NCBI GenBank assembly: GCA_963823665.1
Contig: CAWGMQ010000010.1
Location: 1,120,001 to 1,184,000, forward strand
DNA from: an uncultured Planctomycetota bacterium
Lineage (GTDB): Bacteria > Planctomycetota > Planctomycetia > Isosphaerales > Isosphaeraceae
Direction of reading: 5' to 3'
Length of the DNA: 64,000 nt
Part shown: positions 29,918-49,260 of the stretch, one piece after another
Layout: each line of letters starts with the position of its first letter
Numbering within the stretch: position 1 is the stretch's first letter
The notes under the pieces: generated by a model
The model's database searches: none
What the model saw: only the letters and a program-made list of their open reading frames with translations
What the model was told of the DNA's origin: nothing
Made by a program: the position numbers and the translations under genes

Positions 29918-32900
29918 TCATTTCGTGTGGGGCTGCGCCGCACCGGCGGGGGTCGCGTCAAACTGGATCAAGGCCTTCGCTTCCTTGTAGGCCAGCCACA
30001 TGATCAGCTCGTCCGCGTCGGCACCGCCGGCCAGCGGTTTCTGCTCGTCGACGGGCAGCGGTTTCATCTTCGCGGCCGCTTCGGTCGCGAGCTTGCGGGC
30101 AAGCTCGGTCTTCCCCTGTCGAAACAGGCCCATCGCGCGGTAGAACGCGGAGGTGCTTGATACAGTGTTATTCTTACCTGGATCATTCATCGCCGCGGTC
30201 AAAGCGGCGTCGGCTTCCGCGAAGTGTCCGCTACGGTATTCTGCCATGCCGAGGGCCATCTCGAAATAAACCAGCCACTGGGAACCCTTTCCATGTTCCA
30301 CCGCGCGACGGGCGAGAACCAGCGCGGATTCGCACCGCTTGGGGTCGGCCTGGCGCAGGCTGCAACACTTCGCCGCCTTGTCGGCGAGCCCGAGATGTTC
30401 CGTCTCTTTCGCGAGCGAAAGAAGTTTCTCACAAGTGGAGGAAAGCTCCTTGTCCTGCCCAAACCACGCGTGGAGGGCAGCTACCTTCAAATAGTGGTTG
30501 GACAGGCCATCGCGGAGATCGAGGTCAGAGGGGTTGTCGTCGACCAGTTTCTGCCGGATCGTCAGGGCCTTGCGGAACTCGGCCTCCGCCTCCGCTGGCC
30601 TGCCCGTGCCCGACAGCAGGATGCCGAGGTTGAGGTGGCTGTCCGCCAGTTCGCTGCGGTAGTCGGCCAGCTTCTGCCAGAGTGCCAGCGCCTTGCGGTA
30701 CTCGGCCTCCGCCTCCACTGGCTTGCCGGTCTTCGACAGCAGGTCGGCGAGCGCGCGGTGACTCCACGCCAGGTCGCTGCGGTTCCGAGTGACGGCGGGG
30801 TCGTCGTCGGCCAGCTTCTGGTAGAGCGCCATCGCCTTGCGGTACTCGGCCTCCGCCTCCGCCAGCTTGCCCGTGTTCCACAGCAGGCCGCCGTGGTGGA
30901 AATGGGTCAGCGCCAGGGAAAAGCGGAAGCGGGACTCGGCGGGTTGGTCGTCGGCCAGCTTCTGGTAGAGCGCCAGCGCCGTGCGGTACTCGGCCGCCGC
31001 CTCCGCTGGCTTGCCCGTCCTCGACAGCAAGTAGCCGAGGAAGTAGTGGCTGTGCGCCAGGGAGAAGCGGAAGCCGGTGACGGCGGGGTTGTCGTCGGCC
31101 AACTTCTGGTGGAGCGCCAGTGCGTTGCGGAGCTCGGCCTCCGCCTTCGCCGGCTTGCCTGTCCTCGACAGCAAGAAGCCGAGGTCGTGGTGACTCGACG
31201 CCAGGCTGCTGCGGAAGCCGGTGACGGCGGGGTTGTCGTCGGCCAGCTTCTGCTGGATTTGCAGCGCCGTGCGGTATTCCGCCTCCGCCTCCGCCGGCTT
31301 GCCCCAGGCCGACCGGTAGGCGAGGCCGTTGTGGATGCCCGCCAGGCTGCTGTGGAAACTGGTGACGGCGGGGTTGTCGTCGGCCAGCTTCTGCCAGAGT
31401 GCCAGCGCCTTGCGGAACTCGGCCTCCGCCTCCGCCGGCTTGCCCGTGTTCGACAGCCGCCACCCGAGGTTTTCGTGGCTGACCGCCAGGCCGCTGCGGA
31501 ATTCGGTGACGGCGGGGTTGTCGTCGGCCAGCTTCCGCCAGAGTACCAGCGACTTGCGGTACTCGGCCTCCGCCTCCGCCTGCTTGCCCGTGTTCAACAG
31601 CCGCAACCCGAGGTCGTTGTGGGTCCACGCCAGGTCGCTGCGGAATTGGGTGACGGCGGGGTTGCCGTCGGCCAGCTTCTGGTAGAGCGCCAGCGCCCAG
31701 CGGTACTCGGCTTCCGCCTCCGTTGGCTTTCCCGTCTCCGCCAGCAGGCTGCCGATGCGATAGATGGTGTCCGCCAGGTCGTGGCGGGCGTCGCCCGAGG
31801 CTTCGGGAGCGGCGGCCAGCGCCTCCTGGTCGGCCCGCGCCAGCCGGTAGGCCGCCAGGGCGTCGGCGGACTTGCCCGTGGCCTTCAGGAGCCAACCCAT
31901 TTGCGACCGGCAGGCCGCCAACGCGGCCCGCGCCGACGGATCGGCACCCGCCGGGCCGGCCAGCAGCGACTCCGACCGCCGGTAGGATGCTAGCGCCTCG
32001 TCCGTCTTGCCGGTTGCTTCGAGCAGCCATGCGACCGCGGTCAAGCTGCGCCCGACGTCGACCTTGGCCACGACGCCGGCCCCCGGCTCGGCCGCCAGCG
32101 CCTCGCGAGCCGCCAGGACCGCACGATGCACCGCCAAGGCGTCCTCGTTGCGGCCGACCTTGCCCGTCAGCTCGGCCAGTTCGAAGTTGGACTGCGCCAG
32201 GGCCCGCCGCGAGGCGATGTCGGTATCCTTGCCGAGCAGGGCGCCGAGCTTGCCGTAGAAGTCCGAGGCCGATTTCAAGAGCCGGTCGCGCAGCTCCTTG
32301 AATTTCTCCTCCTTGAGCAGGAAGTCCTCACTCACGCCGGTGTGAAATGTCTTGATCGCGTCCATTGCCAGCTTGTACCGCGCCTCCACGGCCGCACGTG
32401 ATTTGGTGAGCTGGCCGTTGGCTTCATTCAGGGCCGTGTTCGCGTTCGTTTCTCTCGTCAGCGACGCGGCGAGCCTGGCGTTGGCCACCGTCTGCACAGC
32501 CGCCACCGCGGCCAAGCCGCCCAGCAGCGATAGCAGCACCAGGCTGGCGGCGAGCACCCCGTTGCCATGCCTGCGGACGAATTTCTTCGTTCGGTAGACC
32601 CGACTCGGCGGCGCGGCCAGTACCGGCTCGGACGAAAGGTGCCGAGTGATGTCGGCGGCGAAGCCGTTGGCTGTCTCGTACCGCCGGGTGCGATCCTTCT
32701 CCAATGCCTTCATCACGATCCAGTCGAGATCACCCGTCAGCGCCCGCTTCAAATGTGTGGGATCGATGCTGCGACCGGCCGCGATGTTGGGCAGCCCTTC
32801 CGCCGTGCTCACCTTCGTGCTCGGACGGGGCGGATCGACCTCCCGCACCATGCGCAGCATCTCCAGCAGCGCACCTCGCTTGAACTGCGATGGATCCAGC

Positions 32901-33941
32901 GGCGGCGAACCGGCGAGCAACTCGTAGAGGATCACGCCCAGTGCATAGACGTCGGTCCGTGTGTCGATGTCCATCGACGACGGGTCCGCTTGCTCGGGCG
33001 ACATATAGGTAGGTGTGCCGACGATCGCTCCGGTATCACTCAGACTTTGGTCGGTCAGGTCGAACTCCGTGGCCTTGGCCACGCCGAAATCGATGACCTT
33101 GGGCGTGGGACGGCCGTCGACCTCGGTGACCATCACGTTCGAAGGCTTGAGGTCGCGGTGGATGATTCCCTTTTGATGGGCATGCTGCACCGCCTGGCAA
33201 ACGGCCACGAACAGCTCGAGCCGAGCCCGAACCGGCAGCCGTTTGCGGTCGCAGTAATCCGTGATCGGCAGGCCGTTCACCAGTTCCATCACAAAGAACG
33301 GCTGGCCGGTTTCGGTGGTGCCTCCGTCGTAAACGCGGGCGATGTTCGGGTGATCCATCAGGGCCAGCGCCTGGCGTTCGGCGTCGAACCGGGCCAGAAC
33401 CGCGCCGAGTCCATGCCAAGCTTGATCAACTTGAGTGCGACCTGGCGTTTGACCGGTTCGGACTGTTCGGCCAGGTAAACCGTGCCCAGGCCCCCTTCGC
33501 CGAGGAGGTTTCGCAGCGTGTACCGCAACGCGATGACCTGACTCGGCACGAACCCGCCGGGACGATTCCTCCGCCCTGAGGCGACGGTTATAGAATTCTT
33601 GCGCCTGATCCATTCTCCGCGAAGGCGAGCGTTTCAGGGGCGGAAGTTGTTGCTGATTCTGGTGTTTCGGCCGCAATCGTTTCGGCTGCATTTGTGGCGA
33701 TCGATGGCGCATGGGGGCCGGTGACGGCAAGGGTCTTTAACCCGTCAGTGACCGGGCCCTTCGGGCCTTGTGCGAGAAAGCGGTCTGCCTGGTCGTGGGC
33801 CGCCAGTAGCTCCTCGACTCCCGCTTTGAGCGCCTGGTTGCCGCGACATGCGTCCTCGAGGTACGCCTCCCGCTCGGGGCCGCCTGGCCGCTCAAGGGCT
33901 TCACAGAATAAGCTCTTCAGGTCGGGGTCGGGCGAGGCCAT
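29918..33941 (-). CDS. Ser/Thr protein kinase with TPR repeats (frameshifts at 33400-33600)
   Basis: [34 protein letters not shown], many TPR-like [11 protein letters not shown] repeats. Confidence 0.9.
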
Positions 33942-34009
33942 GGGCGTCGACTCCTCGGGATCGGCTCGGAACGAGTCAGGATCGGGGGCCCGAAAGCGGC
34001 CTCTGATCG

Positions 34010-34597
34010 TCATGCTCCGTCTGGCTCCGCCGTGCGACATGAATTCTCCGAAAGTTGCCGAAAAAGCCAGGCGCGTGCGAACGCCCAGTCGCGATCGGCG
34101 GTCCGTCGAACCACCCCCAGCGCGGTCGCCGCTTCGTCCTGGGTCAGTCCCCCAAACATACGGAGCTTGACCAAGGAAGCGGCGCGGGGGTCTTCTCGCT
34201 CAAGCCGGGAGAGGGCGGCGTCGAGGTCTAGCAAATCGTCGGGCGAAGTGTCGAGCCGAGCCACGGCGTCGAGTTCAAGATCCTCGCGCCGTCGCGAAGG
34301 ACCGCCTCTTCGAAGCCGCTTGCGGTTGCGAGCATGGTCGACCAGCACGCGCCGCATGGCCTCAGACGCCGCGGCGAAGAAGTGACCTCGGTTGTTGAAC
34401 TGCTGATCTCCCACCAGCCGCAGATAGGCCTCGTGGACCAAAGCCGTTGCGCTCAGGGTATGGCCGCTAGCCTCGTTCGCCATGTGTGCGACCGCCAGCT
34501 TGCGCAGCTCGTCATATACCAGCGGAAGTAGCCCTGCGGCGGCTTGCGGGTTTCCAGCCTCAATGGCGCCGACGATGCGGGTGACCTCGTTGTTCAT
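34010..34597 (-). CDS. ECF sigma factor, TIGR02999-type
   Basis: LLPLVYDELRKLA, TALVHEAYLRL, RDWAFARAWL; directly upstream of the kinase. Confidence 0.92.
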   Translation of the reverse strand: MNNEVTRIVGAIEAGNPQAAAGLLPLVYDELRKLAVAHMANEASGHTLSATALVHEAYLRLVGDQQFNNRGHFFAAASEAMRRVLVDHARNRKRLRRGGPSRRREDLELDAVARLDTSPDDLLDLDAALSRLEREDPRAASLVKLRMFGGLTQDEAATALGVVRRTADRDWAFARAWLFRQLSENSCRTAEPDGA

Positions 34598-34803
34598 AAG
34601 GTCAAGAATACCGGCCGGGGCGATGATCGGCCAACACGTATCGAACGGGACGTTCCTTGAGAAGCGATCCCCAATCAAGGCGAGCCCCCCGTCGCGGCAC
34701 TCCGAACCAGGCGGAGAGCTTCGCGTCTATGCGGCCATCTTGCGTCAGGCCGCAGCAATCATGACGATCCAGGCATTCGGCAAGAGTTTGCCAGGGTTCC
34801 GGA

Positions 34804-35100
34804 GACACCATACTGATCGCGGTGCGTTGCGTACTGGCACGGTCATGGCCTTGCCGGCAACATGGTAGAGCTTCGATTCCGTACCCTCTACATGCTCGCG
34901 TCGTAAGAGCCCCAGTGCACGGCGCGAGGCCGGGCGGTCGTTTACCCGAGCGTTGCGACATTATCCGCCTCGTTCTCGCCCTAGATTGGACACCGGGGAC
35001 GAGATACGACTAGCAAGGCGTCTGTCGAGTTGGAGATCCGGAGAGCGTGGTAATCAACCAGGCGCTCGTGCTAACGAAATAGCAACAGAATTCAAGCGGG
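34804..35100. repeat. Non-coding element A ending in palindromic site gagagcgtgg-taatcaa-ccaggcgctc (35041-35067)
   Basis: Colinear with 45670-45970. Confidence 0.75.
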
Positions 35101-35275
35101 ATCTCTACTCCGGCCGAGCTTCGATCCAAGAGGGCTATGTCAAGGTCTTCGAGGATGCCACGCCGTCGATGAAATCCCGCGTGGCGCGCATGGAGTTAGA
35201 CTGGTTGTCTAGATTGCCATAAATGGACCTGTCCCCGTTTCTTATCGATCAGTCCCCAGTTGCTCCGCGCCGCGA

Positions 35276-38200
35276 TCATTGCGGCCGGGCGTCCCAGACC
35301 TTCACCGTGCCATCCGCACCGGCCGAGACGAGGCGTTGGCCATCGCGGCTAAACGCCAGACACACGACAAGACTGGTGTGCCCCTTGAGCGTGAGGGTTT
35401 CCTGTCCGGTCACAACGTCCCATAGCTTCACCGTCCCATCCGCGCTGGCGGAGGCGAGACGCTGGCCATCGGGGCTAAACGCCACGCTCGGCAGCACCGC
35501 GTTGGCCACGCTGAAGTTCCCCTTGAACACGCTGCTGGTCCCCTTGAGTGCGAGGGCTTCTTGTCCCGTCGCGCAGTCCCACACCCTCACCGTCCCATCG
35601 AGGCCGGCTGACGCGAGGCGCTGGCCATCGGGGCTGAAATCCACAGCAGTCGCGATCTCCAATTCGAGCGTTCGGATTTCGTTTCCTGTAGTGGCCTCCC
35701 ACACCCTCACCGCCCCATCCTCCAGACCGGCAGACGCGAGGCGCTGGCCGTCGCGGCTGAACGCCACATCGATGACGCGGCCGCTGTGCCCGTTGAGGGT
35801 TTGGGTTTCCTGTCCGGTGGCGGCATCCCACACCTTGACCGTCCCATCTCCATAGGCAGAGGCGAGGCGCTGGCCATCGGTGCTGAACGCCACGCTGGTG
35901 GCGGCCGCGGGACGCTGTGTGCGGGTGGTATGCCCATTGAGTGTGACTCTTTCCTGCCCGGTGGCAGCGTTCCACAGCTTTACCGTCCCGTCCCGATAGG
36001 CGGAGGCGAGTTGCTGGCCGTCGGGACTGAACGCCACGCTGTCGACCGTGCCGCCGTGCTCCTTGAGCGTGAGTTTCCCGTTGGTGTCCACATAATAGCC
36101 CTCGAGCTCCTTGTAGACCGAGCCGTGTCCCTTGAGCGTGAGTGTCTCCCGACCCGTCACCCAGTCCCACACCCTCACCGTCCCATCTCGACCGGCGGAC
36201 GCGACGCGCTGGCCATCAGGACTCAGCGCCACGCTGTTGACCTCGCTGATCTGCCACTGGGGGGCGAGGGTTTCCTGGCGGGTTTGTGCGTCCCACAGCT
36301 TCAGTTCGGCCGGCGTGTTGACTCCGCCACCTGCGGACGCGAGCCGCCGGCCGTCGGGGCTGTACGCCACACAAGCGACAGAGTCAGTATGCCCCTTGAA
36401 GGTTTGGATTTCCTGCCCTGTGACCGCGTCCCACGCCTTCACCGTCTGGTCCCAGCCGCAGGACGCGAGCCGCTGGCCGTCGGGGCTGAACGCCACACAG
36501 TTGACGATGGCACTGTGCCCCTTGAAAGTTTGGATTTCCTGCCCTGTGACCGCGTCCCACACCTTCACCGTCTGGTCCCAGCCGCAGGACGCGAGCCGCT
36601 GGCCGTCGGGGCTGAACGCCACACAGGTGACGATGCCACTGGGCCCCTTGAAGGTTTGGATTTCCCGCCCTGTGGCCGCGTCCCACACCCTCACCGTCTG
36701 GTCCCAGCCGGCGGTCGCGAGCCGCCGGCCGTCGGGGCTGTACGCCACACAGGTGACGATGCCACTGGGCCCCTTGAAGGTTTGGATTTCCTGCCCAGTT
36801 CGTGTGTCCCACAGCTTCACCCCGTCCTGAGCGGCGGATGCAAGGCGCTGGCCATCGGGACTGTACGCCAAGCTCGACACCTTCCGGGTATGCCCCGTGA
36901 GAGTCCAGATCTCCCGTCCGGTCTCGGCACCCCACACTTTCACTTCGCCGCCTGGTTTGTGGGGGTTAGACGCATCACCGGCGGCGGCGATTCGCTGTCC
37001 GTCGGGGCTGAACGCCACACACGTCAGATGGCCACTGTGTCCCTCGAAAGTTTGGATTTCCTGGCCCGTGGCCGCGTCCCACACCTTCAGGAGCCCGCCG
37101 GCGGACGCGAGCCGCCGGCCGTCGGGGCTGTATGCCAAGCTCGATATCCGCGTGTAACCCAGCCTTAAGGTGAGGTGATCCTCGGACATTTTTCGTTGCC
37201 AGTAGAACCACTCGAAGCCTCGGCGATCGATGCCGCCCTGGTTGGCCGGGAGCTGATCGACGAGTCCTTGGTGCAAGAGTGTGCCGTTATAGTCCTCCCA
37301 GCAACGCTGCACGAGATTCATCTGGACGTCATAGAGACGTCGCTGGGCAAGCTCGGTCTGCCGCACGGCCGTACGCCACTGCCAGAGTACGCCCCCGAGC
37401 CCCAGCGCCGTCACCATGGCGACCAGTGCCAAGAGTGCGGCAATTGCCGGCTTTCGCCGTGTCCACTTGACCGCGCGCTCGAGCCGCGTCACCGGCCGCG
37501 CCACGATCGGCTCGCCCGACAGGTACCGTCGCAGGTCTTCCCCCAGCGCCGCCGCCCTTGCATAGCGCTTGCCCGGGTCCTTCTCCAGGCACTTCAGGCA
37601 GATGGTCTCCAGGTCGCGCGGAAGCGCCGCATTGAGCCGCCGCGGCGAGACCGGCTCGTCGCTGAGGACCTGGAGCACGGTGTCCATCGGGGTGGCCGCC
37701 TGGAACGGTGGCCGGCCGGTCGTCAGGGCATAGAGCGTCGCTCCCAAAGAATACACATCGGCCGCCGGCCCAACCTCGCCCCGCTTGCCGCCTGCTTGCT
37801 CCGGCGGCATGTAGCTCGGCGTCCCCATGATCTGGCCAGAGCCGGTCAGGCCGCTGTCTCCCTGAATCTTCTTGGCCAGCCCGAAGTCGGTGACGCGCGG
37901 GTTATTGTTGGAATCGAGGAGGATATTGGCCGGCTTCAAGTCGCGGTGAATGACGCCGTGCTGGTGAGCATACTCGATGGCCTCGCTCACGCGGCGAATC
38001 AGTTCGGCGGCCTGCCGGGCCGGGAGCGGGCCCTCAGTCAAACGCTGGGAGAGGCTCTGCCCTTCGACGAAACCCATCGAGAAGTAATGCTGGCCTTCGT
38101 GCTGCCCAACCTCGAAGATCGGCACGATCCCCGGATGGTCCAGGTTGGCCGCCGCTTCGGCCTCGGTATGGAATCGCTTGACGTCGTTGTCGTCGGCAAG

Positions 38201-38713
38201 CTGGCCGGCCAGGATCATCTTGAGCGCGACGGTGCGATCGAGGCTCACCTGCCGCGCCTCGAACACCACGCCCATCCCGCCGCGCGCGATTTCGCGGATG
38301 ATCTCATAGTCGCCGAAATAGCGGACGTGGGAGGGTGCCCCGGCCTCGGATGGGGCCGGCGCGGATGATCCAAGGTCGACCGTGGCATCTCCTCGAGGCG
38401 GCAACGTCGCCTCATCGTGGACCGACGAAGACGCCTCGCCGGGCTCCGGCAGCGTTGGTAGGGAGCCCGGTGCAATTGTCGGGGCGTCGGCGATACCGGC
38501 TTGTCCTGCCGCTTGCCGCAGCTCGGACTCCAACGCTTCCAGCTCAGCCGCCAAGGCGACCCGGGCGTCCCCTGTGAGCGACCCGATATAATCGTCGAGG
38601 CGCGGCTGGCGCCCTTCTCGCCATGCAGCCTCGAAGCGCCGGCAGGCTTGATCAATACGGCGGACCAGGTCGATGTCCAGGCCGCCGAGGTTGTCGCTGG
38701 TTCGGTGACTCAT
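35276..38713 (-). CDS. Ser/Thr protein kinase with WD40 repeats
   Basis: IARGGMGVV, HRDLKPAN, DFGLAK; many VAFSPDG...VKVWD repeats. Confidence 0.95.
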   Translation of the reverse strand: MSHRTSDNLGGLDIDLVRRIDQACRRFEAAWREGRQPRLDDYIGSLTGDARVALAAELEALESELRQAAGQAGIADAPTIAPGSLPTLPEPGEASSSVHDEATLPPRGDATVDLGSSAPAPSEAGAPSHVRYFGDYEIIREIARGGMGVVFEARQVSLDRTVALKMILAGQLADDNDVKRFHTEAEAAANLDHPGIVPIFEVGQHEGQHYFSMGFVEGQSLSQRLTEGPLPARQAAELIRRVSEAIEYAHQHGVIHRDLKPANILLDSNNNPRVTDFGLAKKIQGDSGLTGSGQIMGTPSYMPPEQAGGKRGEVGPAADVYSLGATLYALTTGRPPFQAATPMDTVLQVLSDEPVSPRRLNAALPRDLETICLKCLEKDPGKRYARAAALGEDLRRYLSGEPIVARPVTRLERAVKWTRRKPAIAALLALVAMVTALGLGGVLWQWRTAVRQTELAQRRLYDVQMNLVQRCWEDYNGTLLHQGLVDQLPANQGGIDRRGFEWFYWQRKMSEDHLTLRLGYTRISSLAYSPDGRRLASAGGLLKVWDAATGQEIQTFEGHSGHLTCVAFSPDGQRIAAAGDASNPHKPGGEVKVWGAETGREIWTLTGHTRKVSSLAYSPDGQRLASAAQDGVKLWDTRTGQEIQTFKGPSGIVTCVAYSPDGRRLATAGWDQTVRVWDAATGREIQTFKGPSGIVTCVAFSPDGQRLASCGWDQTVKVWDAVTGQEIQTFKGHSAIVNCVAFSPDGQRLASCGWDQTVKAWDAVTGQEIQTFKGHTDSVACVAYSPDGRRLASAGGGVNTPAELKLWDAQTRQETLAPQWQISEVNSVALSPDGQRVASAGRDGTVRVWDWVTGRETLTLKGHGSVYKELEGYYVDTNGKLTLKEHGGTVDSVAFSPDGQQLASAYRDGTVKLWNAATGQERVTLNGHTTRTQRPAAATSVAFSTDGQRLASAYGDGTVKVWDAATGQETQTLNGHSGRVIDVAFSRDGQRLASAGLEDGAVRVWEATTGNEIRTLELEIATAVDFSPDGQRLASAGLDGTVRVWDCATGQEALALKGTSSVFKGNFSVANAVLPSVAFSPDGQRLASASADGTVKLWDVVTGQETLTLKGHTSLVVCLAFSRDGQRLVSAGADGTVKVWDARPQ

Positions 38714-39153
38714 GCAATTCAGTCCTGCGGACCGGGCTCCAGCGGATCAATAGAAACGTGAATTGGGCGTTCCCGCCGATCGACGAAGATTGACTTCAAC
38801 GAAGATGTCAATCCCGCGTCCAACTGTGACACGGGTGTCGCGATTTGGGAGTTCCCCCGTGCGCAGGCGGCGGCAGCCTCGTCGATTCTTACCTCGTGGA
38901 TCGATGACGAACCGGCCACGCGGCGCCCCTCAGGTTCGACGCTGCCCCCCGCGATCCCCCGGCGCACTGTAAGCGGCGCGGGACGGATCCAACCGTCGGG
39001 CCTGGCTCGCTGCCGACCAGCATCATACGGCGACATTCGGACCAACGCGACGGGTGAGGTCCAAAGTGCCTTCTGCTGGACCCGAAGCGCTCGACGTGCC
39101 GCGAACGACGGGAGTTTTAGTCGCAAGCGGCGCGACGACCCGGCGATCAGGGT

Positions 39154-39189
39154 AGCGCCTGGTAACGACCCAGGCGCTCTCGCAATTGA
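39154..39189. repeat. Palindromic site C agcgcctgg-taacgac-ccaggcgct(ctcgcaattga)
   Basis: Same inverted repeat and flanks as 45909-45947. Confidence 0.75.
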
Positions 39190-39218
39190 AAAACCCGCGG
39201 AATTAGAGCGGATTTCGC

Positions 39219-39390
39219 GCGGGGCATCCCTTCGGCGTCGCCCGACGCTCTCGATGCCGATGCCATTCTTGCCGGCCAAGCGGCGCTCGGCCGGCAGCCC
39301 GGGGATACCGTCACGATCGCAACAACAAACCTGGCGCACTTGAACCGATTCCCCGGAATCGACGCCCAGACTTGGGATCAGATCCGGTAG
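39219..39390 (+). pseudogene. 3' remnant of a PIN-domain protein
   Basis: RGIPSASPDALDADAILAGQA...DTVTIATTNLAHLNRFPGIDAQTWDQIR*. Confidence 0.65.
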
Positions 39391-39552
39391 GCATTCTGCA
39401 CGTTAACGAAACCGGGCCGTGCGTGCAGCTACACAAGAGCGACGCCTCGCTCGGAATCAAAATCCATTCCGAGCGGTTGGAGACGTTGCGGTTTCCGTCC
39501 GCCACTACGCCGCCGGCTCTGTCGATACTAGTCGCGTCCCCGTTTCCGTCCC

Positions 39553-39655
39553 TGCCGGCCAGCCAGGAGATACCGTCACGATCGCAACGACGAACCTGGC
39601 GCACTTGAACCGTTTTCCTGGAATCGACGCCCAGATCTGGGTTCAGATCCGGTAG
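39553..39655 (+). pseudogene. Second, shorter 3' remnant of the same PIN-domain family
   Basis: AGQPGDTVTIATTNLAHLNRFPGIDAQIWVQIR*; direct repeat of 39290-39390. Confidence 0.65.
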
Positions 39656-39737
39656 GGATCTTCAACCGCGCGGGCGCTGGGCCGGTTGGAGGGGCGAGGA
39701 AGGGGGACACGTCGCTCCTCACTTGCGCTTCACGGGA

Positions 39738-41075
39738 TCAAAGCGGTACGTCCCCGTTTTCCCGTTCGGGTTTATCCGCTCGGGAGAAGATGCTCGCCTT
39801 CTTTCCCGGCCGCACATCCAACGAGAGCAGCCCCGCGACACTCAGAACAAATGCGATCAGGTTGGGCAGCGCATAGAGCCCGATTAACATTACCATCGGC
39901 AGGTTGACGGCCGCGTGCAACGCCAGTAACCCTCCCACAATTCTCCTCGCCACAGGCCCGCAGAAAGTGCAGACCAGCGGTGCCATGGCGAGGAGTGAAT
40001 AGCCCAAATACGGATTGAAAATATAAGCTGCGATTAACGTGCCGACCTTTTCGTTGGCCAACATGAAGCGGAACGGCAGCACTCCGAGCCCCAGGGCGAC
40101 TGCCAGGCCCACCCAGCACAGAGATGGTCCCAGTCCTGATCGGGTGCCTGAAAAGGTCGAATCCGTGTTGCCGCCTTTGCTTTTGGTCCCCTCCAGACCG
40201 GCATTTTCAAGACCTGCCCGCGCTCTTCGGCTCGGGAAACCAGCCGAAACCAGCAAGCCCGCTGCGCTCACCCCTGGGCACAGCAAGAGCCAAAGGAAGG
40301 AAGGCAACGCCACGACCGGGTATAAGCCGAAAGCCACCAGCGCCAGTGCCATGATTCTTTGAGTCCAGGCGCGTGCAAACGTACAAACAAGCGGGGCCAT
40401 GGCCAACATTGCTAGCACGAGAAGATCCCGGAAGCGGCCTCATGCGCCGCCCCCGCTCATAAGGTAAATGCTTCCTCCCGAGATGTTCCACAGGATGAGC
40501 GACGCCAGGCCCGCCCAACAGAGGAGGATCGCACGCCGGGACCGCTCGTGGCTGGCCGGGAGTTCGACGGACCTTTTCCAGGGACTGGTTGTGCGGCCCG
40601 GCGAAAACCCCCCGATCAAGAGCCCCGCCGTGGTCGTGATTAACGCGAGAGCCCACAGCCAGAAACCCGCGAGCAGGCCGTGGAAGAAGCCGACCTCGGG
40701 AATGCACACTTGAAGGATGGACAACGTAGCCAAGGGCAACACCACGCCAACCGCCTTCTTGGCTGTCTTTCCGGCAAAAGTGCAGATGAATGGGGCCGCG
40801 ATCGTCAAGACGTGAGGGACCCAGCACGGAAAGGCGTAAAAGCTAAGGATCAGGCACACGCAGCCAAGATCGCCGGCAACCCACTCTCCCCTCCCTTGGA
40901 CACGTATGGCGGGAAGCAAGAGCGAGACAACGAAAAGCACCAACCCGCCCCAGCATAACCACAAGGGGAGCCTGTCTATCTTCGAACCGTTACGTGGTCC
41001 GAAATCGGGCGGTTCAGGCGCGAATCGTCGACATCGGACGGCGGGTTTTCCATCGTACACCTGTCGCTTCCACAT
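39738..41075 (-). CDS. Membrane protein of three repeated modules, interrupted by one in-frame TGA (40440-40442)
   Basis: ORFs 40440-41075 and 39738-40418 share a frame; motif LCWxGL...AP(L/F)(V/I)CTF occurs three times. Confidence 0.65.
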
Positions 41076-41682
41076 TTTCTTTTAGCAGAGACCAGTTGGA
41101 TCGAACCGCCGAGATCTCGGTTGCAGGCCGGTTTGGGTAGCGTCGGAGCTTGCCGGGGCTCCGGCTTGTAATCCGAGAGACGACTGCGAGGCTTCCTCCA
41201 GGTTGGATTGCGCCGCGCTTCGCGGGCTGGCCATCGAGCGGCCGGGCTTCCCACGCCTTCACCGTCCAATCAGCACTGATGGAGGCGAGCCAAGCTTAAA
41301 CTAATTATGTTCAATCGGATTGGTAGTGTGCCAACACCAGCCAAGAGCTTCTCCGTCAAGGTGCTGACTTCGGCTGTTCCCAAAGCAAAGATGCGCGAGC
41401 TCGTACCGCAAGAACACTGGGACGTGATCGCTGGTCAGTCCGTGAACGAAGGGATGGATTCAGGACGGATTCTGAGGAGGGCAGGCTGATTTGGAAGAGC
41501 GCCTGGTTATTAATTTTCAAGCAATGTGCATATAACGTTCAATATGTACTCGGTGTAAGTTTAAGTTCAGACTGAACATGTGGCCTGTCCCTTCGGCGGT
41601 CTTGGACCGAGTTCTGATTCGAGAGAGGAGGCTTAAAACGAATAAGATCGTTGCTGTAACTTCCTAGAGGATATGCTTTTAG

Positions 41683-41728
41683 TGGAGACGACCGGGATCG
41701 AACCGGCAACCTCCTGGTTGCAAACCAG
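41683..41728 (-). mobile_element. tRNA-Ala 3' half duplicate (att site, distal)
   Basis: 46 nt identical to 49261-49306. Confidence 0.92.
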
Positions 41729-42092
41729 TCGCTTTACGGCGACGAAAAACGATGTAAAGTGTTTCTGCAATTCGATTCGTAGTCTGCACTCATGACGCAG
41801 GCGTTTTCCGGGAATTATCGGGATTTTGCGGGAATTATCAGGATTTGCGCCAATTCTCTGCCACGGCAGAGCTGTATACGTTGATGGACGTTAACCGATA
41901 AACGACTGGCTCCGACGGCGAAGCGCGAAATCACAGCGCCAACAAGAGTGCATCACGCCTTTTGCACGAGGCCGGGTCAGCTCAGCCCCCCGCCTTGACA
42001 CGCGATCTGAACCGATTGTCCCATCCGGTGTCTTAAGTGAAAATAGGTGCCCGTTACCGGGCCACTTAGGACGCGACCGATAGGGCGTTGAA

Positions 42093-42845
42093 ATGGGGCG
42101 GAAAAAACGGAATCGCCTGGACCCACGACTGGAAGCGTGTGAGTGCGTTTATTGCGGATCGCGCGACCGGCTAACGTTCGACCACGTTCCACCGCAGAAC
42201 CTGTTTTCAAGTCCGCGTCCGGGCAACTTGATTAAGGTGCCTTGCTGCCACTCTTGCAACAAAGGCTTCTCGAAGGACGATGAGTATTTCCGGCTGATGG
42301 TCGTGTTGCGCCATGACATCGGATCACACCCCGAATTCAAAAACTTATGGCCAACAGTATATAGGTCGCTTCTTCGACGTCGTGAGCACGGATTCACGAA
42401 CGGCCTGCTTCAAAGCATGGCGCGGGTGGATGTTCAGTCTCCCGGGGGTTTGTTTCTCGGCCAGCTTCCTACATATAGCGTCGATCTGGTCCGGCTCGAT
42501 CGCACGGCGGCGCGTATTACCAAAGGCTTATTCTACCATGAGTTTGGCTCCCGCCTCCCCGATGATTACTGCGCTGTGTCGTACAACAAATCCGGTTTCG
42601 GCGGGAATGTGGCTGGAGTAGAACTGGTCAATTCGATGTGCGCAAAACTCTTTGTTTCACCTCCCAAGACGATCGGAGCGAACGTCTTTTCTTACTGGTT
42701 CCAGCGTACTAGCGACAATCCGAATGCAAGTGTATGGCTCATGCTTTTTTTCGGGCGCGTTCCATTCTTTTGCCTTACGATCGAGAAAACTCTCGCTGCA
42801 AAACGAACTTATACAGTTGTGCAGGCACCGCAAATTGAAGTGTGA
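42093..42845 (+). CDS. HNH endonuclease-like protein
   Basis: CVYCG...TFDHVPP...VPCCHSCNKG. Confidence 0.8.
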   Translation: MGRKKRNRLDPRLEACECVYCGSRDRLTFDHVPPQNLFSSPRPGNLIKVPCCHSCNKGFSKDDEYFRLMVVLRHDIGSHPEFKNLWPTVYRSLLRRREHGFTNGLLQSMARVDVQSPGGLFLGQLPTYSVDLVRLDRTAARITKGLFYHEFGSRLPDDYCAVSYNKSGFGGNVAGVELVNSMCAKLFVSPPKTIGANVFSYWFQRTSDNPNASVWLMLFFGRVPFFCLTIEKTLAAKRTYTVVQAPQIEV

Positions 42846-42887
42846 GAAGAAGGTTTCAAACGCCGACAGTGTCGGATGTCGGTGATA

Positions 42888-43050
42888 ACCACTTTGGGTA
42901 CCACTTTAGCAACCATACGGGTACCACCTGCGTCACACTGGTGGCACATTCTCGTTGCCCCAAACGCCCTCAGCATAAAGTGAAGGGCGTTTGGGCCAAC
43001 GAGAATGTTCTCGGAGAGGGTGTTATCCGGTGGTCTCCCAAAGTGGTACC
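42888..43050. repeat. Long palindrome with flanking ACCACTTT repeats
   Basis: 27/28-nt inverted arms 42946-42972 and 42981-43008 with 8-nt spacer; outer IR accactttggg (42888) / cccaaagtggt (43037). Confidence 0.8.
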
Positions 43051-43061
43051 GATCCTAGCTG

Positions 43062-43265
43062 CTACCCACAGTCGGATCGCTCACATCCTCGGCAGAACCA
43101 ATCGCGAGTGTATTGGTGGCTTCTAATAGCCTGAAAATGCAGATCGACAAACTGACCTCCGCCACCAGGATTGGTGGAGTACCGCCTGTAGGCAAACTTC
43201 GGCCAAACGTGGCTGTCTTCCAGTAGTTGTGGTTCTATGCAGAGATGACACAGGCCGTTGATCAT
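43062..43265 (-). pseudogene. N-terminal fragment of a Zn-binding HNH-like protein
   Basis: CHLC...LEDSHVWPK...FCRGCE, ending abruptly next to the palindrome. Confidence 0.6.
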
Positions 43266-43354
43266 GGTTTTATTCCTATTACGATGCCGCTTCTGTCTAG
43301 CGATCATTCGTCGCATCTCCTAAGGAAACTGCGTCCGGGCCGTATACTATATGA

Positions 43355-44038
43355 GTGCCGCGCGGCTCAAAGGGAGCGACTGTTTCGCTCGACCAACTGG
43401 ATACGGAGACATTTCCATTGGCCGCTTTATCTCCAGATGCCGAACGAGTCGATAAGTTCATTCAAACCCGTGACCGCCTTTCTCTCGGGCAGTTGATGAT
43501 TCTTATCGCGGGCGCCGCGGTAGGGCTTGGCTTGCTGCCGCTGGGATCGCTCAGCCACCTTCCGGTCTACGGCCGAACCGGCATCTCCTGGCAAGGTCTG
43601 GTCATCGCTCTTTATGGCACGGTCTCGGGCGCTACGATGGCGGCCTTCGTTCTTCTGATCGTCAACCACCTGATCGCACGCCGCAAATGGGGGCCAGGGG
43701 CAGTTTCCCTGTTCACGTCGGGAATTACCGCATGGACGTTTTTACCAATGGTGGCTGTTTCTTGGATCCGCGCTTCGGGGGCGTTCGAGCCATTCAGCCT
43801 CTTTCTCCGGATCAACCTCGCGCACGACCCGGGCTCATATGCCCTCGAAGCATTCTATTATTTCTGGCCCGTGGCATGCCTCGCGCTTTTCATTGGGTGC
43901 TGCCTGAGCGGACAAGCCCCCAGGTGGTGGGCCTTGCGCGGCTGGTGGCCCGAATGGTTGGGAATGTGGGTGCTCGCCTTCTGGGCCATCCCGGCCATTC
44001 CGATCATCATCGGTTTTTTCAGAACATACTTTCGGTAG
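43355..44038 (+). CDS. Hypothetical membrane protein
   Basis: About five hydrophobic helices; RLSLGQLMILIAG motif. Confidence 0.7.
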   Translation: MPRGSKGATVSLDQLDTETFPLAALSPDAERVDKFIQTRDRLSLGQLMILIAGAAVGLGLLPLGSLSHLPVYGRTGISWQGLVIALYGTVSGATMAAFVLLIVNHLIARRKWGPGAVSLFTSGITAWTFLPMVAVSWIRASGAFEPFSLFLRINLAHDPGSYALEAFYYFWPVACLALFIGCCLSGQAPRWWALRGWWPEWLGMWVLAFWAIPAIPIIIGFFRTYFR

Positions 44039-44063
44039 AAGACGGGAAACAAAACGCCGCAAA

Positions 44064-44552
44064 CTAGCGCACGGCAGAGTTCATTTCACCCATTTGATTC
44101 CTCGCAGCCTCATCGGGCTCGACTTGCCCGCGCCACCCCAGCCACCGCGTCGGCTTGCCCTCGCCCGAGGGCGATTCGCAGGGCGTTTTCACGACTCGTC
44201 GGAGATGGTCTAGCAGCGGTTCACATTCGAGCCGGACCTTTCGGGTGCTTTTACAGGAGTTGCACTCTGGGTAACCCTTGCAATAGCGGGGGCTCCGCGC
44301 GTCGGCCACCTCGATATCGGCCAGGTAGGCCTTCAGGAAAGGTAGCTCCTCGTGCATCGCTACACCGAAGTAATCCCGGCAATAGCAGACCTCGACCCAC
44401 CGAATCAACCCCGATTTGTCCACCCGGCCGGTGCAAATCACGGTCCCAAGGTCGCCGTACGGAAAGCCGTCGCCAAAGCTCCCGTCTTCGAGCGCCCGCA
44501 GCAGATCAACCTTCGCCTCCGGTCGGATTTTGGCTGCCCGTACGTATCGCAT
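44064..44552 (-). CDS. Hypothetical protein
   Basis: 162-aa ORF with WVEVCYC and CKGYPECNSC. Confidence 0.65.
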   Translation of the reverse strand: MRYVRAAKIRPEAKVDLLRALEDGSFGDGFPYGDLGTVICTGRVDKSGLIRWVEVCYCRDYFGVAMHEELPFLKAYLADIEVADARSPRYCKGYPECNSCKSTRKVRLECEPLLDHLRRVVKTPCESPSGEGKPTRWLGWRGQVEPDEAARNQMGEMNSAVR

Positions 44553-44692
44553 GATTCGACTCCGCTGCAAAGATCGCTCATTGTAGAATTATAGTAAGCC
44601 GGCGAGCCCAGGACCAGGAGACGAGTCGGTACGGTGGGATAGCCCACTGGCTATCCAGCGTGGGACGGGCGTAGTACGCACTGCTGCACGAA

Positions 44693-44995
44693 GTGCTCGG
44701 GGCGCTAAGCCGCAGAGGCTTCGCGCTGCCTCGTCGCGGCAAGGTGCACACCTTCGGGCGGCTTAAATTCGTTTATGCGGCCGATCCCGACCTCAAGCGA
44801 ATGGGACTTACCCTCGAAGCCCTGGGCCGGCTGCGCAACGCGGCAGAATATCAGCTCGGTACGTCGGGCCCGTTCGTGTCGCCGAGAATTGCCATTTCTG
44901 CCTTGACCGACGCCGGATCGGCCGTCGCGCTACTCGACGCAATCGAGGCTGATCCGGTGCGGCGTGCGGGAGCTGCGCGGACGATACCGCCCTGA
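44693..44995 (+). pseudogene. 3' part of a HEPN-like protein
   Basis: H...LGRLRNAAEYQL (R-x4-Y motif); no clear N-terminus. Confidence 0.45.
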
Positions 44996-45081
44996 GTCCC
45001 GCTTGGAGACTACTTCGGCCTCGAGCGGCGCGCAGGTCGCGACCCTTCTTTGCCATCTCCGTGCCAGTTATCCTTGACGTC

Positions 45082-45633
45082 ATGAATGAGATCACCCGAA
45101 TTCATGGCACCATCGACGACGGCAAGCCGCGGCGCAGCTTCTGCCGCTCGTGTACGACGAGCTACACAAGCTCGCGGCTGGTCACATCCGCATGAGTCAC
45201 CCGGCCAAACGTTGAACGCCACGGCCCTGTTTTGCGAGGCCTATCTGCGGCTCGTTGGTCGCGCCGGAGGTCGTGTATTCGCCAATCGGGGTCACTTTTT
45301 TGCCGCTGCCGCCGAGGGATGCGACGGGTGCTCGTCGACAACAGTCGCAACCGTGCCCGCTCAAAACGGGGCGGCGGGAAGAGCCAGATCGATCTCGACA
45401 AGCTCACCGAGCCTGCTTCGGCTACGGACGACGATCTCCTCGCGCTGGATGACGCGATCGACCGCCTGGCCAGTAAGTACCCCGAAGCCGCCGAGCTTGT
45501 GAAATTGCGGTTCTTTGCCGGGATGACCCTGGACGAGGCGGCCGAATCGATGCGGCTCTCGCTCCGGACCGCCAACCGTCAATGGGCATTCGCACGGCCC
45601 TGGTGGCCGGCTGCCGCCCTCTCCCGCGAGTGA
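45082..45633 (+). pseudogene. TIGR02999-type ECF sigma factor with several frameshifts and no downstream kinase
   Basis: MNEITRI, LLPLVYDELHKLA, EAYLRLV, VKLRFFAG, RQWAFAR spread over different frames. Confidence 0.8.
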
Positions 45634-45669
45634 TCCGAATCTCCCGACATTGCGCGGGGCGGCTCCCGG

Positions 45670-45970
45670 GACACCATAACGATCTAACCGATATCGCGTG
45701 GCGGCAAGGCTGTGGCCTTGCTGGCTACATCGTAAAGCTTCGACTCGCAACCTATGTATGCTCGCGTGATAAAAATCGCCACTCGAGGCGACCAGAGGGC
45801 CGATGGTTCATCGAAGAGTTGCGCTCTTCGCCTCCCTCGTACTCGCCCCACAATTCAGACCGGGGCCGACGTACGACAAGCACGCGCCTCTGACGAGTTC
45901 GAGATCCGGAGAGCGCCTGGTAATGAACCAGGCGCTCTCGCAAATGAAAAGGCCGCAGAATCAAGAGAGG
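45670..45970. repeat. Non-coding element B containing perfect palindrome gagagcgcctgg-taatgaa-ccaggcgctctc (45909-45939)
   Basis: Homologous to 34804-35100; 12-bp perfect inverted repeat with 7-nt spacer. Confidence 0.8.
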
Positions 45971-46062
45971 ATCCTACGGTTCTTCCATCGTATGTTCAAC
46001 CAAAGACGGTACTTCACGCGCGATTTCAAGTGACGTAAGTCTTGGTTCAACTTCATGTTAAG

Positions 46063-46107
46063 TGGAGACGACCGGGATCGAACCGGCAACCTCCTGGTTG
46101 CAAACCA
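46063..46107 (-). mobile_element. tRNA-Ala 3' half duplicate (att site, proximal)
   Basis: 45 nt identical to 49261-49305. Confidence 0.92.
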
Positions 46108-46250
46108 AGAATTCTTGAAAATAGCAAGTCGTTTGAGAATAATGGGTTAAGTGCGATTCTGCGGACGCTGCTGGTTTCCAAAGTTTCTAAAGATTTACGG
46201 GATTTTTCGAGGATTTGCTAGGGTTTTGGTGCACGTGCACTGAAACTCAA

Positions 46251-46694
46251 TCATCCCGACTTCCGCTTGGCCAAGCCTCGCTCGATCGACTGATACTTGA
46301 TGTAGTTCTCGACCACGCCGATCTTCTTCACATCGTGCCCCTTGGCAATCACCTTACCGTTGCGGACCCAGAAGTGGGGTGCTTTCCCTTTGTCCAACAT
46401 TCCCGCAAACTTCATCAGCGGGAATCGAACGACAAAATGGGATCGCATGAGCGAGGAGTCGACCCGCTGAGCTTCGAAAACCAATCCATGTTGATCCCAT
46501 ATCCTAAGTAACTTCCGGCGGCGGGTCGCCAGCATCAGTTTGGCAAGGCATTTCTCAAGCTCGAATCCGGCGCGCATCAATGGGCGGCTGCTTCCGAGGG
46601 CATACGTGTAAGGCGCAAGGTGGCATGGGTTATCTGCGAACACATGGTGAACGAGCTGGCCATTCTTCCTTTCCACCATGCCCATGGAATGCAA
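46251..46694 (-). CDS. Hypothetical protein (possibly partial)
   Basis: 147-aa ORF in the lower-GC island; start uncertain. Confidence 0.4.
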   Translation of the reverse strand: MHSMGMVERKNGQLVHHVFADNPCHLAPYTYALGSSRPLMRAGFELEKCLAKLMLATRRRKLLRIWDQHGLVFEAQRVDSSLMRSHFVVRFPLMKFAGMLDKGKAPHFWVRNGKVIAKGHDVKKIGVVENYIKYQSIERGLAKRKSG

Positions 46695-47196
46695 TCAGCT
46701 TGCTGATTTTCCGGCCGTTGGTGAATTCGAGATTGATGCGTAGCTTGCCCTTGAATCGCTGATTGGTCCAAACAGTGTGGCACATCCGGCAGAGCAGGTT
46801 GCATTTATCGAGTTCGTCGAATTGCTCAGTGGGAGACCACTCGGCGGATCATTTTCTCGTAGATTTTCGACTTTTGCACGGATCGATGTGATTGAATTCA
46901 AACGCACCCTTCGCCGTCAGGAATCGCCTCTCCATGGCTTTGATGCTGCGTTTGCAGATGGTGCAACGATTACCCATGTACTGAAGTCTGATTTGCCGGT
47001 CATCAACGTTCCGCCTGCCCATGACCCCGCATCTCCGTAGTCTCTGGATGTCAATTGAAAACGGTGGAAGTATTCTAACGTCCAGCTAGCTTGCTGGAAA
47101 CGGCAGTTGCAGAGGATTTGATGCGGGCCGGCTCGCATGCGCGCGTGAAAAATGTTACGATTGTTGATGGGTTTTGAAACGTTGATGGAGTGATGG

Positions 47197-47409
47197 ATGA
47201 TGGCTACGATTATGACTCCGTGTCCGACGTGCAACAAGCGAACTCCGCACCGTTCCGCTGGGGTGAATAGCAAGGTGAAAGATGCAGACGGACGCGTTTA
47301 CCAACAGATGGAATGCGCAGTCTGTAAGACCTCGACGAAGGTCTATTTTACCGAGGGCACAAACGAGTTCCAGGAAAACCTCGACGCTCCGGATGCCACA
47401 AAGGACTGA
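47197..47409 (+). CDS. Small zinc-ribbon protein
   Basis: CPTC...CAVC; GGAG upstream. Confidence 0.6.
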   Translation: MMATIMTPCPTCNKRTPHRSAGVNSKVKDADGRVYQQMECAVCKTSTKVYFTEGTNEFQENLDAPDATKD

Positions 47410-47508
47410 ACGACGTAAGCACAATCGCCGTGCTTGCAGCGATCGTCGGCACCCTGGCATCGGTCGTCAGCGTCGCTGCCTCCCCATTTGATCAACAAGG
47501 AGCTCGTT

Positions 47509-48045
47509 ATGCCCGAGTGGTTTGGTGGTGCCGCGCTTTCCCCGGACATGCTGATCCCACCACATGAACAGTGGCAACTACAATGGGATCGTGTACGCCG
47601 CTGGTACCAGCGCGTCGTTGCAATCAAGGAAAACAGCCAACGAATTGAACCAACGCAATATGATGTGGACACGACTATTGCTTTTCTGCAAAACTGCTAC
47701 CATCTGAGAGATTGGCTGACGGCCTGCCGCCCTGACCTGACGAAAAAGGTCGATGCGCTGTTCGCCGGGCACTTTGAGATGAAGGGATGCCGGGATGTCT
47801 GCAACGGCTTTAAGCATAAGCAACTGAACAAGCCATCGCTTGATCCTGCATTTAATCTCTACCGAGAATACGATCACTTCGAGGCTGAGGCGAATCCGTC
47901 GTCAAGCCCTGTTTTTCTCCGAATCGCATTCACGGACGGCCAGGACGTGCGAAAGTTCGACCTTTTCGAATTCGCGGATGCCTGCTACGGCATCTGGGCG
48001 AGCTTTATCGCTCAAGAGTTGCAGGGCGCGTTGCGGACGGCTTGA
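47509..48045 (+). CDS. Hypothetical protein, HEPN-like
   Basis: AAGGAG RBS; NCYHLRDW and RDVCNGFKH motifs. Confidence 0.6.
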   Translation: MPEWFGGAALSPDMLIPPHEQWQLQWDRVRRWYQRVVAIKENSQRIEPTQYDVDTTIAFLQNCYHLRDWLTACRPDLTKKVDALFAGHFEMKGCRDVCNGFKHKQLNKPSLDPAFNLYREYDHFEAEANPSSSPVFLRIAFTDGQDVRKFDLFEFADACYGIWASFIAQELQGALRTA

Positions 48046-48130
48046 ACAATTCGTAGCGACTGACAACCCGGCCCTCTGTCGCTCATATCCGACAGGCGGC
48101 ATCTTGTTGTGCCGTAATGTAAAATGATGC

Positions 48131-48156
48131 TTGACCATTATTGCATTCTGCAATAG
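48131..48156 (+). promoter_or_regulatory. Putative -35 box with adjacent palindromic operator
   Basis: TTGACC followed by tattgcattctgcaata; AGGAGG RBS at 48191. Confidence 0.45.
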
Positions 48157-48201
48157 CCTCCATCTGTACAGGCGATGATGCCTGGCTTATAGGAGGTTAC
48201 C

Positions 48202-48510
48202 ATGGACTTACTCACAAACGAGAAGCTTGAAGAATTGCTAGCGGTGTCGCCTGCCGAGCGTGTCACGCCAGAATATATGAAATCGCGTATCGCCGACACG
48301 ACGTTTACACGCATCGGCGAGACGATCACGTATTGCCGAATCGTGCTGGATAACGGCTTCGGCGTCAGCGGCGAAAGCGCCTGCGTGAACGCAGAGAACT
48401 ACAACCAGCAGATCGGCGAGAAGATCGCCTACGATAACGCCTTCCGCCAGCTCTGGCCACTGTTCGGCTTCTTGCTGGCCGAAAAGAACAAGCTCAAGGC
48501 GGCGGCATGA
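48202..48510 (+). CDS. Phage Gp49/66-family protein
   Basis: CRIVLDNGFGVSGESACVNAENYNQQIGEKIAYDNAFRQLWPLFGFLL. Confidence 0.85.
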   Translation: MDLLTNEKLEELLAVSPAERVTPEYMKSRIADTTFTRIGETITYCRIVLDNGFGVSGESACVNAENYNQQIGEKIAYDNAFRQLWPLFGFLLAEKNKLKAAA

Positions 48511-48824
48511 AGCCGATTGTACAAGAAGCTGCTCAAGATCTGGCGGAAGGCTTGGCCGATGCGGGCGAGATCATCGAGGGCGGCTTCGCAGGGTTCCGCA
48601 TGATGGTGATACCCAAAGGTGCCCCTGCGATCCAGGTGCATGAGATGCGACTGGCCTTCTTCGCGGGGGCGCAGCATCTTTTCGCAAGCATCATGGCCGT
48701 GATGGATTCAGATAGGGAGCCGACGCCGAGGGACTTGCATCGCATGACCATGGTTCACGAGGAGTTGGAAGCGTTCCGCAAGGACTTCGAGCTAAACCAC
48801 CTGCGCACAGATGGGAGTGCATGA
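48507..48824 (+). CDS. Phage-like hypothetical protein
   Basis: QVHEMRLAFFAGA motif; ATGA overlaps with both neighbours. Confidence 0.7.
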   Translation: MKPIVQEAAQDLAEGLADAGEIIEGGFAGFRMMVIPKGAPAIQVHEMRLAFFAGAQHLFASIMAVMDSDREPTPRDLHRMTMVHEELEAFRKDFELNHLRTDGSA

Positions 48825-49030: not shown

Positions 49031-49260
49031 TCACGCGAAGATGTAGTAATGCGCCATAAGCCCGAAGCTCTAGGTCCCTTACGCTGTCTCATAATCGCTG
49101 GTCGATCTATCACGCGAGAATTTTGGTGCAGCCGGAAGTGCTTATGGAGCAGCGATTTACCTGCGATCCAGAGCGAGTTTCAGTGCAGTTTTGGTGCAGT
49201 CTTTTAATTCATTCGTCGGTGGTTATCGACCCAAACAACCGCTGCTAAACGACTTACGAA

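Follow-up and report, generated by a model that had tools for sequence, protein, structure and literature searches.

Stacks of islands that have no integrase of their own are known behind tRNA and ssrA genes. The sections of two papers used here describe cis-mobilizable elements (CIMEs), with tandem accretion at tRNA 3' ends (PMC5704250), and Dehalococcoides ssrA islands without an integration module (PMC3146451); as presented there, both are decayed elements that keep only the attachment sites attL and attR. Such integrase-free tRNA islets are usually viewed as decayed leftovers. Here we analyse a stack at tRNA-Ala(TGC) in a 64,000-nucleotide stretch of a planctomycete genome (contig C10 of the source genome G000, positions 1120001-1184000; the window below), and in particular a palindrome found inside its cassettes. 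By structure and by att-to-att transfer the stack is CIME-like: the cassettes, which are small and occur in soil planctomycetes, are integrase-free, bounded by attachment site (att) duplicates, stacked behind their target gene and in need of the integrase of another element. Unlike the CIMEs as described in these sections, they hold a conserved extra core-type site at a fixed distance in the left end, and their flanks are shuffled across it.

The cassettes also resemble the lambda-type systems that use anticodon loops (PMC2951348, PMC10865867, in the parts consulted for both), where attP carries the tRNA's 3' half, and the classical cassettes have arm-type-like repeats around the core. According to the same parts, those systems have one core per attachment site and overlap mismatches are strongly deleterious, strict overlap identity being the usual rule for tyrosine integrases (PMC10865867). 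In contrast, the palindrome-type left end lacks arm-type repeats and has in their stead what looks like a second core, symmetric and with another spacer. A more permissive enzyme is IntDOT of CTnDOT, which in the portion of the source cited recombines mismatched 7-bp overlaps, provided they are identical where it first cleaves, and takes inverted overlaps as well (PMC2817482). It is a precedent for the chemistry suggested below, likened by mechanism and not by sequence comparison. From what that portion covers, however, IntDOT acts on the ends and targets of the conjugative transposon itself, not on a spare site in non-autonomous cassettes.

Integron attC cassettes and the pdif modules of Acinetobacter are promoter-poor cargo arrays, which a recombinase encoded elsewhere reshuffles at short sites. 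The arrays studied here likewise consist of cargo modules and short sites, with the recombinase elsewhere. Unlike attC, the palindrome has no conserved, covarying single-strand hairpin, and unlike pdif/dif, the 28-bp XerC/XerD site with an 11-6-11 layout, it has symmetric tRNA-derived arms around a 7-bp spacer. In a search that lay mostly outside subscription journals, we found no published account of integrase-free tRNA cassettes with a second core-type site inside. What is known are the integrase-free, att-bounded tRNA stacks; what is new is the second core-type site in the cassette ends. We lean, by a modest degree, towards a reading of the palindrome as a second, mismatch-tolerant crossover site, where a borrowed tRNA-site tyrosine integrase would swap cargo between cassette ends.

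The palindrome in cassette left ends

In integrase-free cassettes at tRNA-Ala(TGC) the palindrome has a fixed place in the left end, 177 bp from the att core. Its two inverted arms around a 7-bp spacer (12-7-12) are the left core arm of the tRNA, i.e. it copies a tRNA-Ala integrase core, as a preliminary description made from the window alone had proposed. The intact modules run in the order att core, tRNA 3' half, conserved linker of about 123 bp, palindrome, and either an att duplicate or the intact tRNA serves as the att core. No intact site occurs apart from such a core, all have the same orientation, and the distance from loop centre to spacer centre is 176-178 bp in all intact modules listed. 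The clustering near tRNA-Ala(TGC) that the earlier text had asked about was therefore found both in the genome and in its relatives, while its free-standing second class of sites has to be replaced by a fixed left-end part.

The four palindromic and half sites of the window are all present at the coordinates claimed beforehand (Table 1). The letters A, B and C used there without definition make sense as the 35041, 45909 and 39154 sites, in this order. With at most three mismatches the site pattern has five matches against 0.09 expected, and 0/100 shuffles reach five; two of these matches are the tRNA itself and one att duplicate. The likeness to the tRNA (49303-49322) holds for 18/20 bases at the 45909 site and 19/20 at the 39154 site. 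From the nearest att duplicate the 45909 site is 124 bp away and the half site 171 bp, in line with the earlier description, and the 39154 and 35041 sites lie 2.5 kb and 6.7 kb from any. These two are modules minus their att core, and the 39154 site is homologous to an intact module in the relative G001. The non-coding flank of about 240 bp that the 45909 and 35041 sites were said to have in common is 70% identical with six 1-bp gaps. A decayed coding sequence was ruled out for it, as the mismatches are spread 26/25/19 across the three codon positions.

Across the 16 Mb of the genome there are four exact sites, two in the window and two on contig C6. Both C6 sites lie about 125 bp behind a tRNA-Ala att duplicate, so the sites are not dispersed, contrary to how they had been described. 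They precede a module made up of an extracytoplasmic function (ECF) sigma factor and a kinase-TPR gene; its identity to window 34775-30659 is 87-89%. Several sites stand before ECF sigma or kinase genes, as a transcription-factor operator or an RNA hairpin would. However, all exact sites are in a tRNA-Ala cassette context, the genes downstream and their orientation vary, and there is neither an Rfam match nor covariation. An operator spread over the genome or an RNA hairpin is thereby largely refuted and has a negligible probability.

Between copies (24 sites) the arms are 90% identical, the linker 56-70%, the right flank 48-58% and spacer bases 4-6 only 46%. Judged by this pattern, the palindrome is evidently under selection as an integrase-type site. 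Alternatively, a single old recombination in the wrong orientation could have left it as an inert remnant that was then passed on with the linker: the left flank at the 39154 site resembles the tRNA D-arm even beyond the arm (19/20), and the palindrome is confined to one family. Against such a relic are the arms, far better kept than their surroundings, the tRNA-Val family, which is separate and has a much shorter linker, and the linkage break across the palindrome (both below), and we regard it as very improbable.

The best kept spacer bases are 2, 3 and 7 (21, 23 and 23 of 27 sites, counts slightly lowered by two mis-centred sites that were excluded from the linkage tests). They equal the anticodon loop read backwards, a comparison based on the 27-site counts only, and so the palindrome is closer to an inverted than to a direct att core. 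Bases 4-6 differ in 8/8 pairs whose linkers are at least 80% alike, i.e. close relatives do not have identical overlaps. The preliminary description had assumed that spacer identity sorts the partners, and that the sites would recombine with each other and not with the tRNA. The first assumption does not appear to hold, as bases 4-6 differ between close relatives and the exchange appears to fall inside the spacer; the second is doubtful, since the conserved bases are the loop backwards and two junctions described below join half a palindrome to tRNA-type sequence.

Single-stranded folds serve as recombination substrates in CTXphi and in integron attC sites, and the att core could in the same way pair with the palindrome on transferred single-stranded DNA. 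In G068 the minimum-energy fold does pair the left arm of the tRNA with the right arm of the palindrome across the linker (z -5.0). The window copy, however, folds into local hairpins instead, several sites at tRNA-Val keep the left arm only, and there is no covariation. The covariation term is -0.17 kcal/mol, with two-sided changes in 2/17 pairs; for the palindrome it is 1/12 pairs, and one pair is mismatched in 11/18. Such a fold-back is hardly credible, and arms without stem covariation fit two protein-binding half sites. Just left of the palindrome, the linker contains a 7-bp imperfect inverted repeat (45945-45985) with mostly one-sided changes, which may be another protein site.

Among 121 genomes of the family 12 carry the palindrome, ten at one mismatch (one match for the reversed-pattern control) and two more with degenerate copies. 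In 265 genomes from other families of the class there were two matches, neither beside a tRNA, and searches of viral contigs and of plasmids gave none. Of the 119 pattern matches outside planctomycetes in the genome collection, most are without a nearby tRNA-Ala piece and were set aside as apparent chance in coding DNA. All metagenome matches (7/7) belong to the same module, five intact and two rearranged, one of which begins at the tRNA end while the other is without att core and linker. Named records sharing the module architecture are labelled Isosphaeraceae or Planctomycetota. Variants were also seen. At locus L424 a long inverted-repeat insert fuses the right arm directly to the left flank of the palindrome, with att core and linker deleted. 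Two loci (L414 in G044:C95, L245 in G017:C284) have a different left end with two tandem right-half sites about 100 bp apart, and single half sites occur 176 bp from the tRNA end at window 41495-41513 and at L219.

Transferred unit and integrases

A stretch of 4227 bp, from att core to att core and with the palindrome inside, is 99.8% identical in G001 and G068, which belong to different genera. A second common stretch, between G068 and G073, is 93.9% identical over 5.6 kb. Window 41886-39780, a stretch that includes the half site, is 92.6% identical to G072 over 2.1 kb. The shuffling of cargo as cassettes suggested earlier has support in one respect, the breakpoint between left and right flanks at the palindrome, and lacks it in another, as the transferred unit runs att to att with the palindrome inside it.

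Eleven palindrome-type cassettes are bounded on both sides by an att site or the target (window 46101-41721 and ten others in G000, G001, G068, G072 and G073), and in these five genomes none (0/11) contains a PF00589 match. The window has no tyrosine recombinase gene either, the nearest of the 20 PF00589 matches in the genome being 140 kb away. A Pfam scan of 69 window open reading frames (ORFs) gave an IS21-type transposase pair but no site-specific recombinase, and no serine recombinase was found in Pfam scans of the window, C6 and part of the ORFs of the relatives. A small recombinase inside the G001 array was dropped as the cognate enzyme, since it reads as an integrase-plus-transposase pair, presumably of IS91 type.

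The palindrome cassettes mostly pair with one right-arm class, which opens with a short palindrome, and their left ends are without the direct arm-type repeats of the classical left ends, which pair with another right-arm class. No integrase element adjoins the arrays examined; tRNA-Ala integrases are present in other genomes. In other genomes of the family, integrases of three unrelated types directly follow tRNA-Ala(TGC), and relatives have tyrosine integrases of about 400 aa behind this tRNA. One of them, L218 (G047:C39, behind tRNA-Ala), has the same arm motif as the classical cassette of the window, and its relatives target many tRNAs. No palindrome was found beside the L221- and L223-type integrases behind tRNA-Ala in relatives. 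For the palindrome cassettes the integrase would be supplied in trans, with the tRNA-site integrase family of about 400 aa, for example L218, as the candidate.

Linkage, junctions and the tRNA-Val(TAC) family

Across the palindrome the left and right flanks are not linked (rho 0.07, p 0.29, 20 intact modules), while the halves within each side are (rho 0.46 and 0.52, p<=0.002, n=20; Mantel tests, which on related sequences overstate significance). Adjacent 30-bp segments give rho 0.36, 0.36 and 0.60 on the left, 0.52 and 0.23 on the right and -0.03 across the palindrome, and the unlinking is stable in a jackknife and in three subsets. The short palindrome at the right end of the cassettes, used as a control, keeps its linkage (rho 0.43-0.51, p<=0.002, n=16). 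The coincidence with breakpoints raised in the preliminary description is therefore borne out. The break appears to run through the spacer: in 14 uncorrected comparisons with few informative bases, base 1 tracks the left side (rho 0.42, p 0.003), as does the left arm (rho 0.41, p 0.006), bases 4 and 5 track the right side (p 0.03 and 0.01), and bases 2 and 3 are nearly invariant. The clearest pair, the G000 C6 module and L427, is 92-97% identical up to spacer base 3, differs at bases 4-6, and has 46-56% identity beyond the right arm.

An integrase could also bind the palindrome without cutting it. The palindrome would then be an accessory site that replaces the absent arm-type repeats and builds or regulates the complex, and the flanks would be shuffled by homologous recombination in a conserved block or by deletions halting at the last essential element. 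The cassette classes fit this, as palindrome cassettes mostly have one right-arm class and no direct arm-type repeats, and so do the att-to-att extent of the transferred unit and the free variation of spacer bases 4-6. Two pairs, one at tRNA-Val and one in G001, moreover diverge just outside the right arm, as would be expected of a terminal binding site. On the other hand, crossovers in the arms would move the whole spacer one way, but base 1 sides with the left flank and bases 4-5 with the right. The control palindrome, likewise, shows no linkage break, and the G062 junction described next switches partner at the spacer. We consider a purely accessory role rather unlikely.

Two junctions involve half of a palindrome. 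On G062:C47 the right arm and a window-type flank (76% identical) are fused to the anticodon-loop 7-mer, read oppositely. Beyond the 7-mer follow a different (short-core) arm without the tRNA 3' half, and then a decayed integrase that is 59% identical to L218 over 208 residues. In G071 the 5' half of the tRNA is fused to the spacer and the right half.

The G062 arrangement of right half, loop 7-mer, short-core arm and integrase gene is also what would be seen if the palindrome were a landing pad, i.e. a harmless inverted target for integrase-bearing elements that would provide a cassette with an integrase in cis. The variable spacers and swapped flanks would then be scars of entry and exit. 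The conserved spacer bases 2, 3 and 7, equal to the loop read backwards, agree with this, and short-core integrases at tRNA loops are known from the part of PMC10865867 used here. It is, however, a single case in the matches listed for 121 genomes, no palindrome was found split by a complete element, and the other end of this junction did not turn up, which makes a landing pad improbable as the main role.

At tRNA-Val(TAC) there is a parallel set of sites (Table 1). Seven of them, in four genomes including G000 and with 3/7 near-identical, have their right arm 64 bp behind the end of the tRNA, on a linker much shorter than the Ala linker, and carry the Val base at the inner end of the arm. As 7/8 tRNA-Val sites have this base, the arm follows the target. 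An inverted copy of the own arm, with at most one mismatch, follows the tRNA in 23/59 Ala and 7/54 Val contexts (one each in the reversed control), fractions that are too high, since the pattern itself was used to fetch many of the loci. The exact inverted arm of the other tRNA occurs in none of the 59 Ala and 54 Val contexts. Val half sites at +59 to +69 were left out of these counts, as they overlap arm-type-like repeats and may be coincidence.

Position, arm conservation, loss of linkage, the control palindrome, the two junctions and the Val family support the crossover. Besides the statistical limits given with the tests above, several results weigh against it. The split between spacer bases 3 and 4 was picked after one pair had been viewed, the left-tracking signal drops to p 0.06-0.09 in subsets, and in a coarser run with 41-bp segments the right-flank segments are barely linked to each other (rho 0.04-0.08). 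The Val pair diverges not in the spacer but immediately beyond the right arm, where homology in the G001 pair stops too, some 20 bp past the centre. The G062 junction is a single case, its inner arm ends are 8 instead of 7 bases apart, and the search for its other end found nothing. Two 13-bp direct repeats could have produced the G071 junction by deletion of what lay between them. The eighth Val site lies 54 bp behind the tRNA end and has the Ala base, one Ala site carries the Val base, and the six Val spacers, read either way, do not consistently resemble the Val loop. G000 yielded no close L218 homologue, the best match being 28% identical. Finally, read-level junctions between two sites, proposed earlier as a check, did not appear: the public contigs aligned, which are not reads of this strain, contain no recombinant joints at the sites. 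In these contigs no run covers more than a quarter of the stretch, and ten align mainly over the palindrome and the nearest linker.

If the crossover takes place, two integrase subunits would bind the two arms as at a core site. Strand exchange between the palindromes of two cassettes would need few conserved spacer bases, and sites with different spacers could therefore recombine. In a tandem stack, exchange between two palindromes would cut out a circle with the cargo and right arm of one cassette joined to the att core and linker of the next. This circle would carry a complete attachment site and could re-enter the tRNA. Integrase-bearing elements might also use the palindrome backwards as a target, as the G062 junction suggests.

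A wider proposal, which we put forward tentatively, is that ordinary tRNA-site integrases here drive an integron-like gene-shuffling system at two tRNAs. Each cassette would have a spare, symmetric, mismatch-tolerant core, cargo would be cut out between two palindromes, the attachment site would be rebuilt from neighbours, and signalling genes (ECF sigma factors, kinases) would be dealt into new ends. If real, a conserved second core site with crossover in the spacer would make these islets purpose-built cassettes and provide a route for loading and exchange of cargo, a matter still open for islands at tRNA genes. Part of the spread of kinase and ECF sigma modules through very large planctomycete genomes would then have an explanation as well. 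For engineering, a symmetric site with tolerance of spacer mismatches would be of value.

The array in the window

The features of the array, together with the Val sites, are given in Table 1. Cassette 1, next to the tRNA, carries direct arm-type-like repeats at its two ends, 49183-49198 and about 46224-46232. The truncated gene reported beside the 39154 site is a short, locally duplicated gene fragment without a Pfam match (39222-39552), and it recurs at cassette junctions in G000 C6, G072 and G073.

Table 1. Coordinates of the tRNA-Ala(TGC) array in the window and of the parallel sites at tRNA-Val(TAC)
Feature	Position	Strand	Remarks
Intact tRNA-Ala(TGC), array target	49261-49333	-	anticodon loop 49296-49302; only tRNA-Ala(TGC) in window
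Cassette 1, integrase-free, classical type	46110-49260	-	no palindrome
Att duplicate 1 (anticodon loop + tRNA 3' half)	46063-46109	-	
Conserved linker (X) of about 123 bp, att duplicate to palindrome	45940-46062	-	
Palindrome, putative second core site	45909-45939		12-7-12, perfect 12-bp arms; centre 177 bp from att loop
Non-coding right flank	45670-45908	-	common to 35041 site and G062 integrase junction
Frameshifted ECF sigma factor gene, cassette 2 cargo	45086-45633	+	
Short palindrome opening right-end (P) arm of cassette 2	41856-41871		linkage control
Att duplicate 2 (anticodon loop + tRNA 3' half)	41683-41733	-	cassette 2 = 4380 bp loop to loop
Half site	41496-41513 (feature 41495-41513)		different linker; 211 bp from att duplicate 2
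Orphan palindrome	39154-39181 (feature 39151-39181)		9-bp arms; about 40-55 bp of linker remains; att duplicate lost
Ser/Thr kinase-WD40 cargo gene behind 39154 site	35276-38713	-	
Orphan degenerate palindrome	35041-35067 (feature 35040-35069)		2-bp deletion in one arm; att duplicate lost
Non-coding right flank	34804-35040	-	homologous to 45670-45908
ECF sigma + Ser/Thr kinase-TPR cargo module	29918-34678	-	87-89% identical copies behind C6 palindromes
Val parallel sites	G000:C4 around 1406667 (L407); G072, G068, G064, G021		

The right arm before the att duplicate at 46109 (46110-46260; L261-L280) recurs across the family, and arms of this type precede 3'-half duplicates of the tRNAs for Ala, Lys, Val and Pro. 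The arm-type motif of these elements drifts, the two ends of each one changing in step. The tRNA-Ala of the window is without the upstream DUF1570 neighbour found in several relatives. Further tRNA-Ala att duplicates lie far from the intact tRNA, at G000:C5 506862, 1119890 and 1135301. Near-complete tRNA-Ala copies with the upstream region occur within or at the far end of arrays (G068:C5 342765, 344179 and 373238; G001:C5 4542884; G000:C5 1159022), so that a whole tRNA gene appears to be part of some cassettes.

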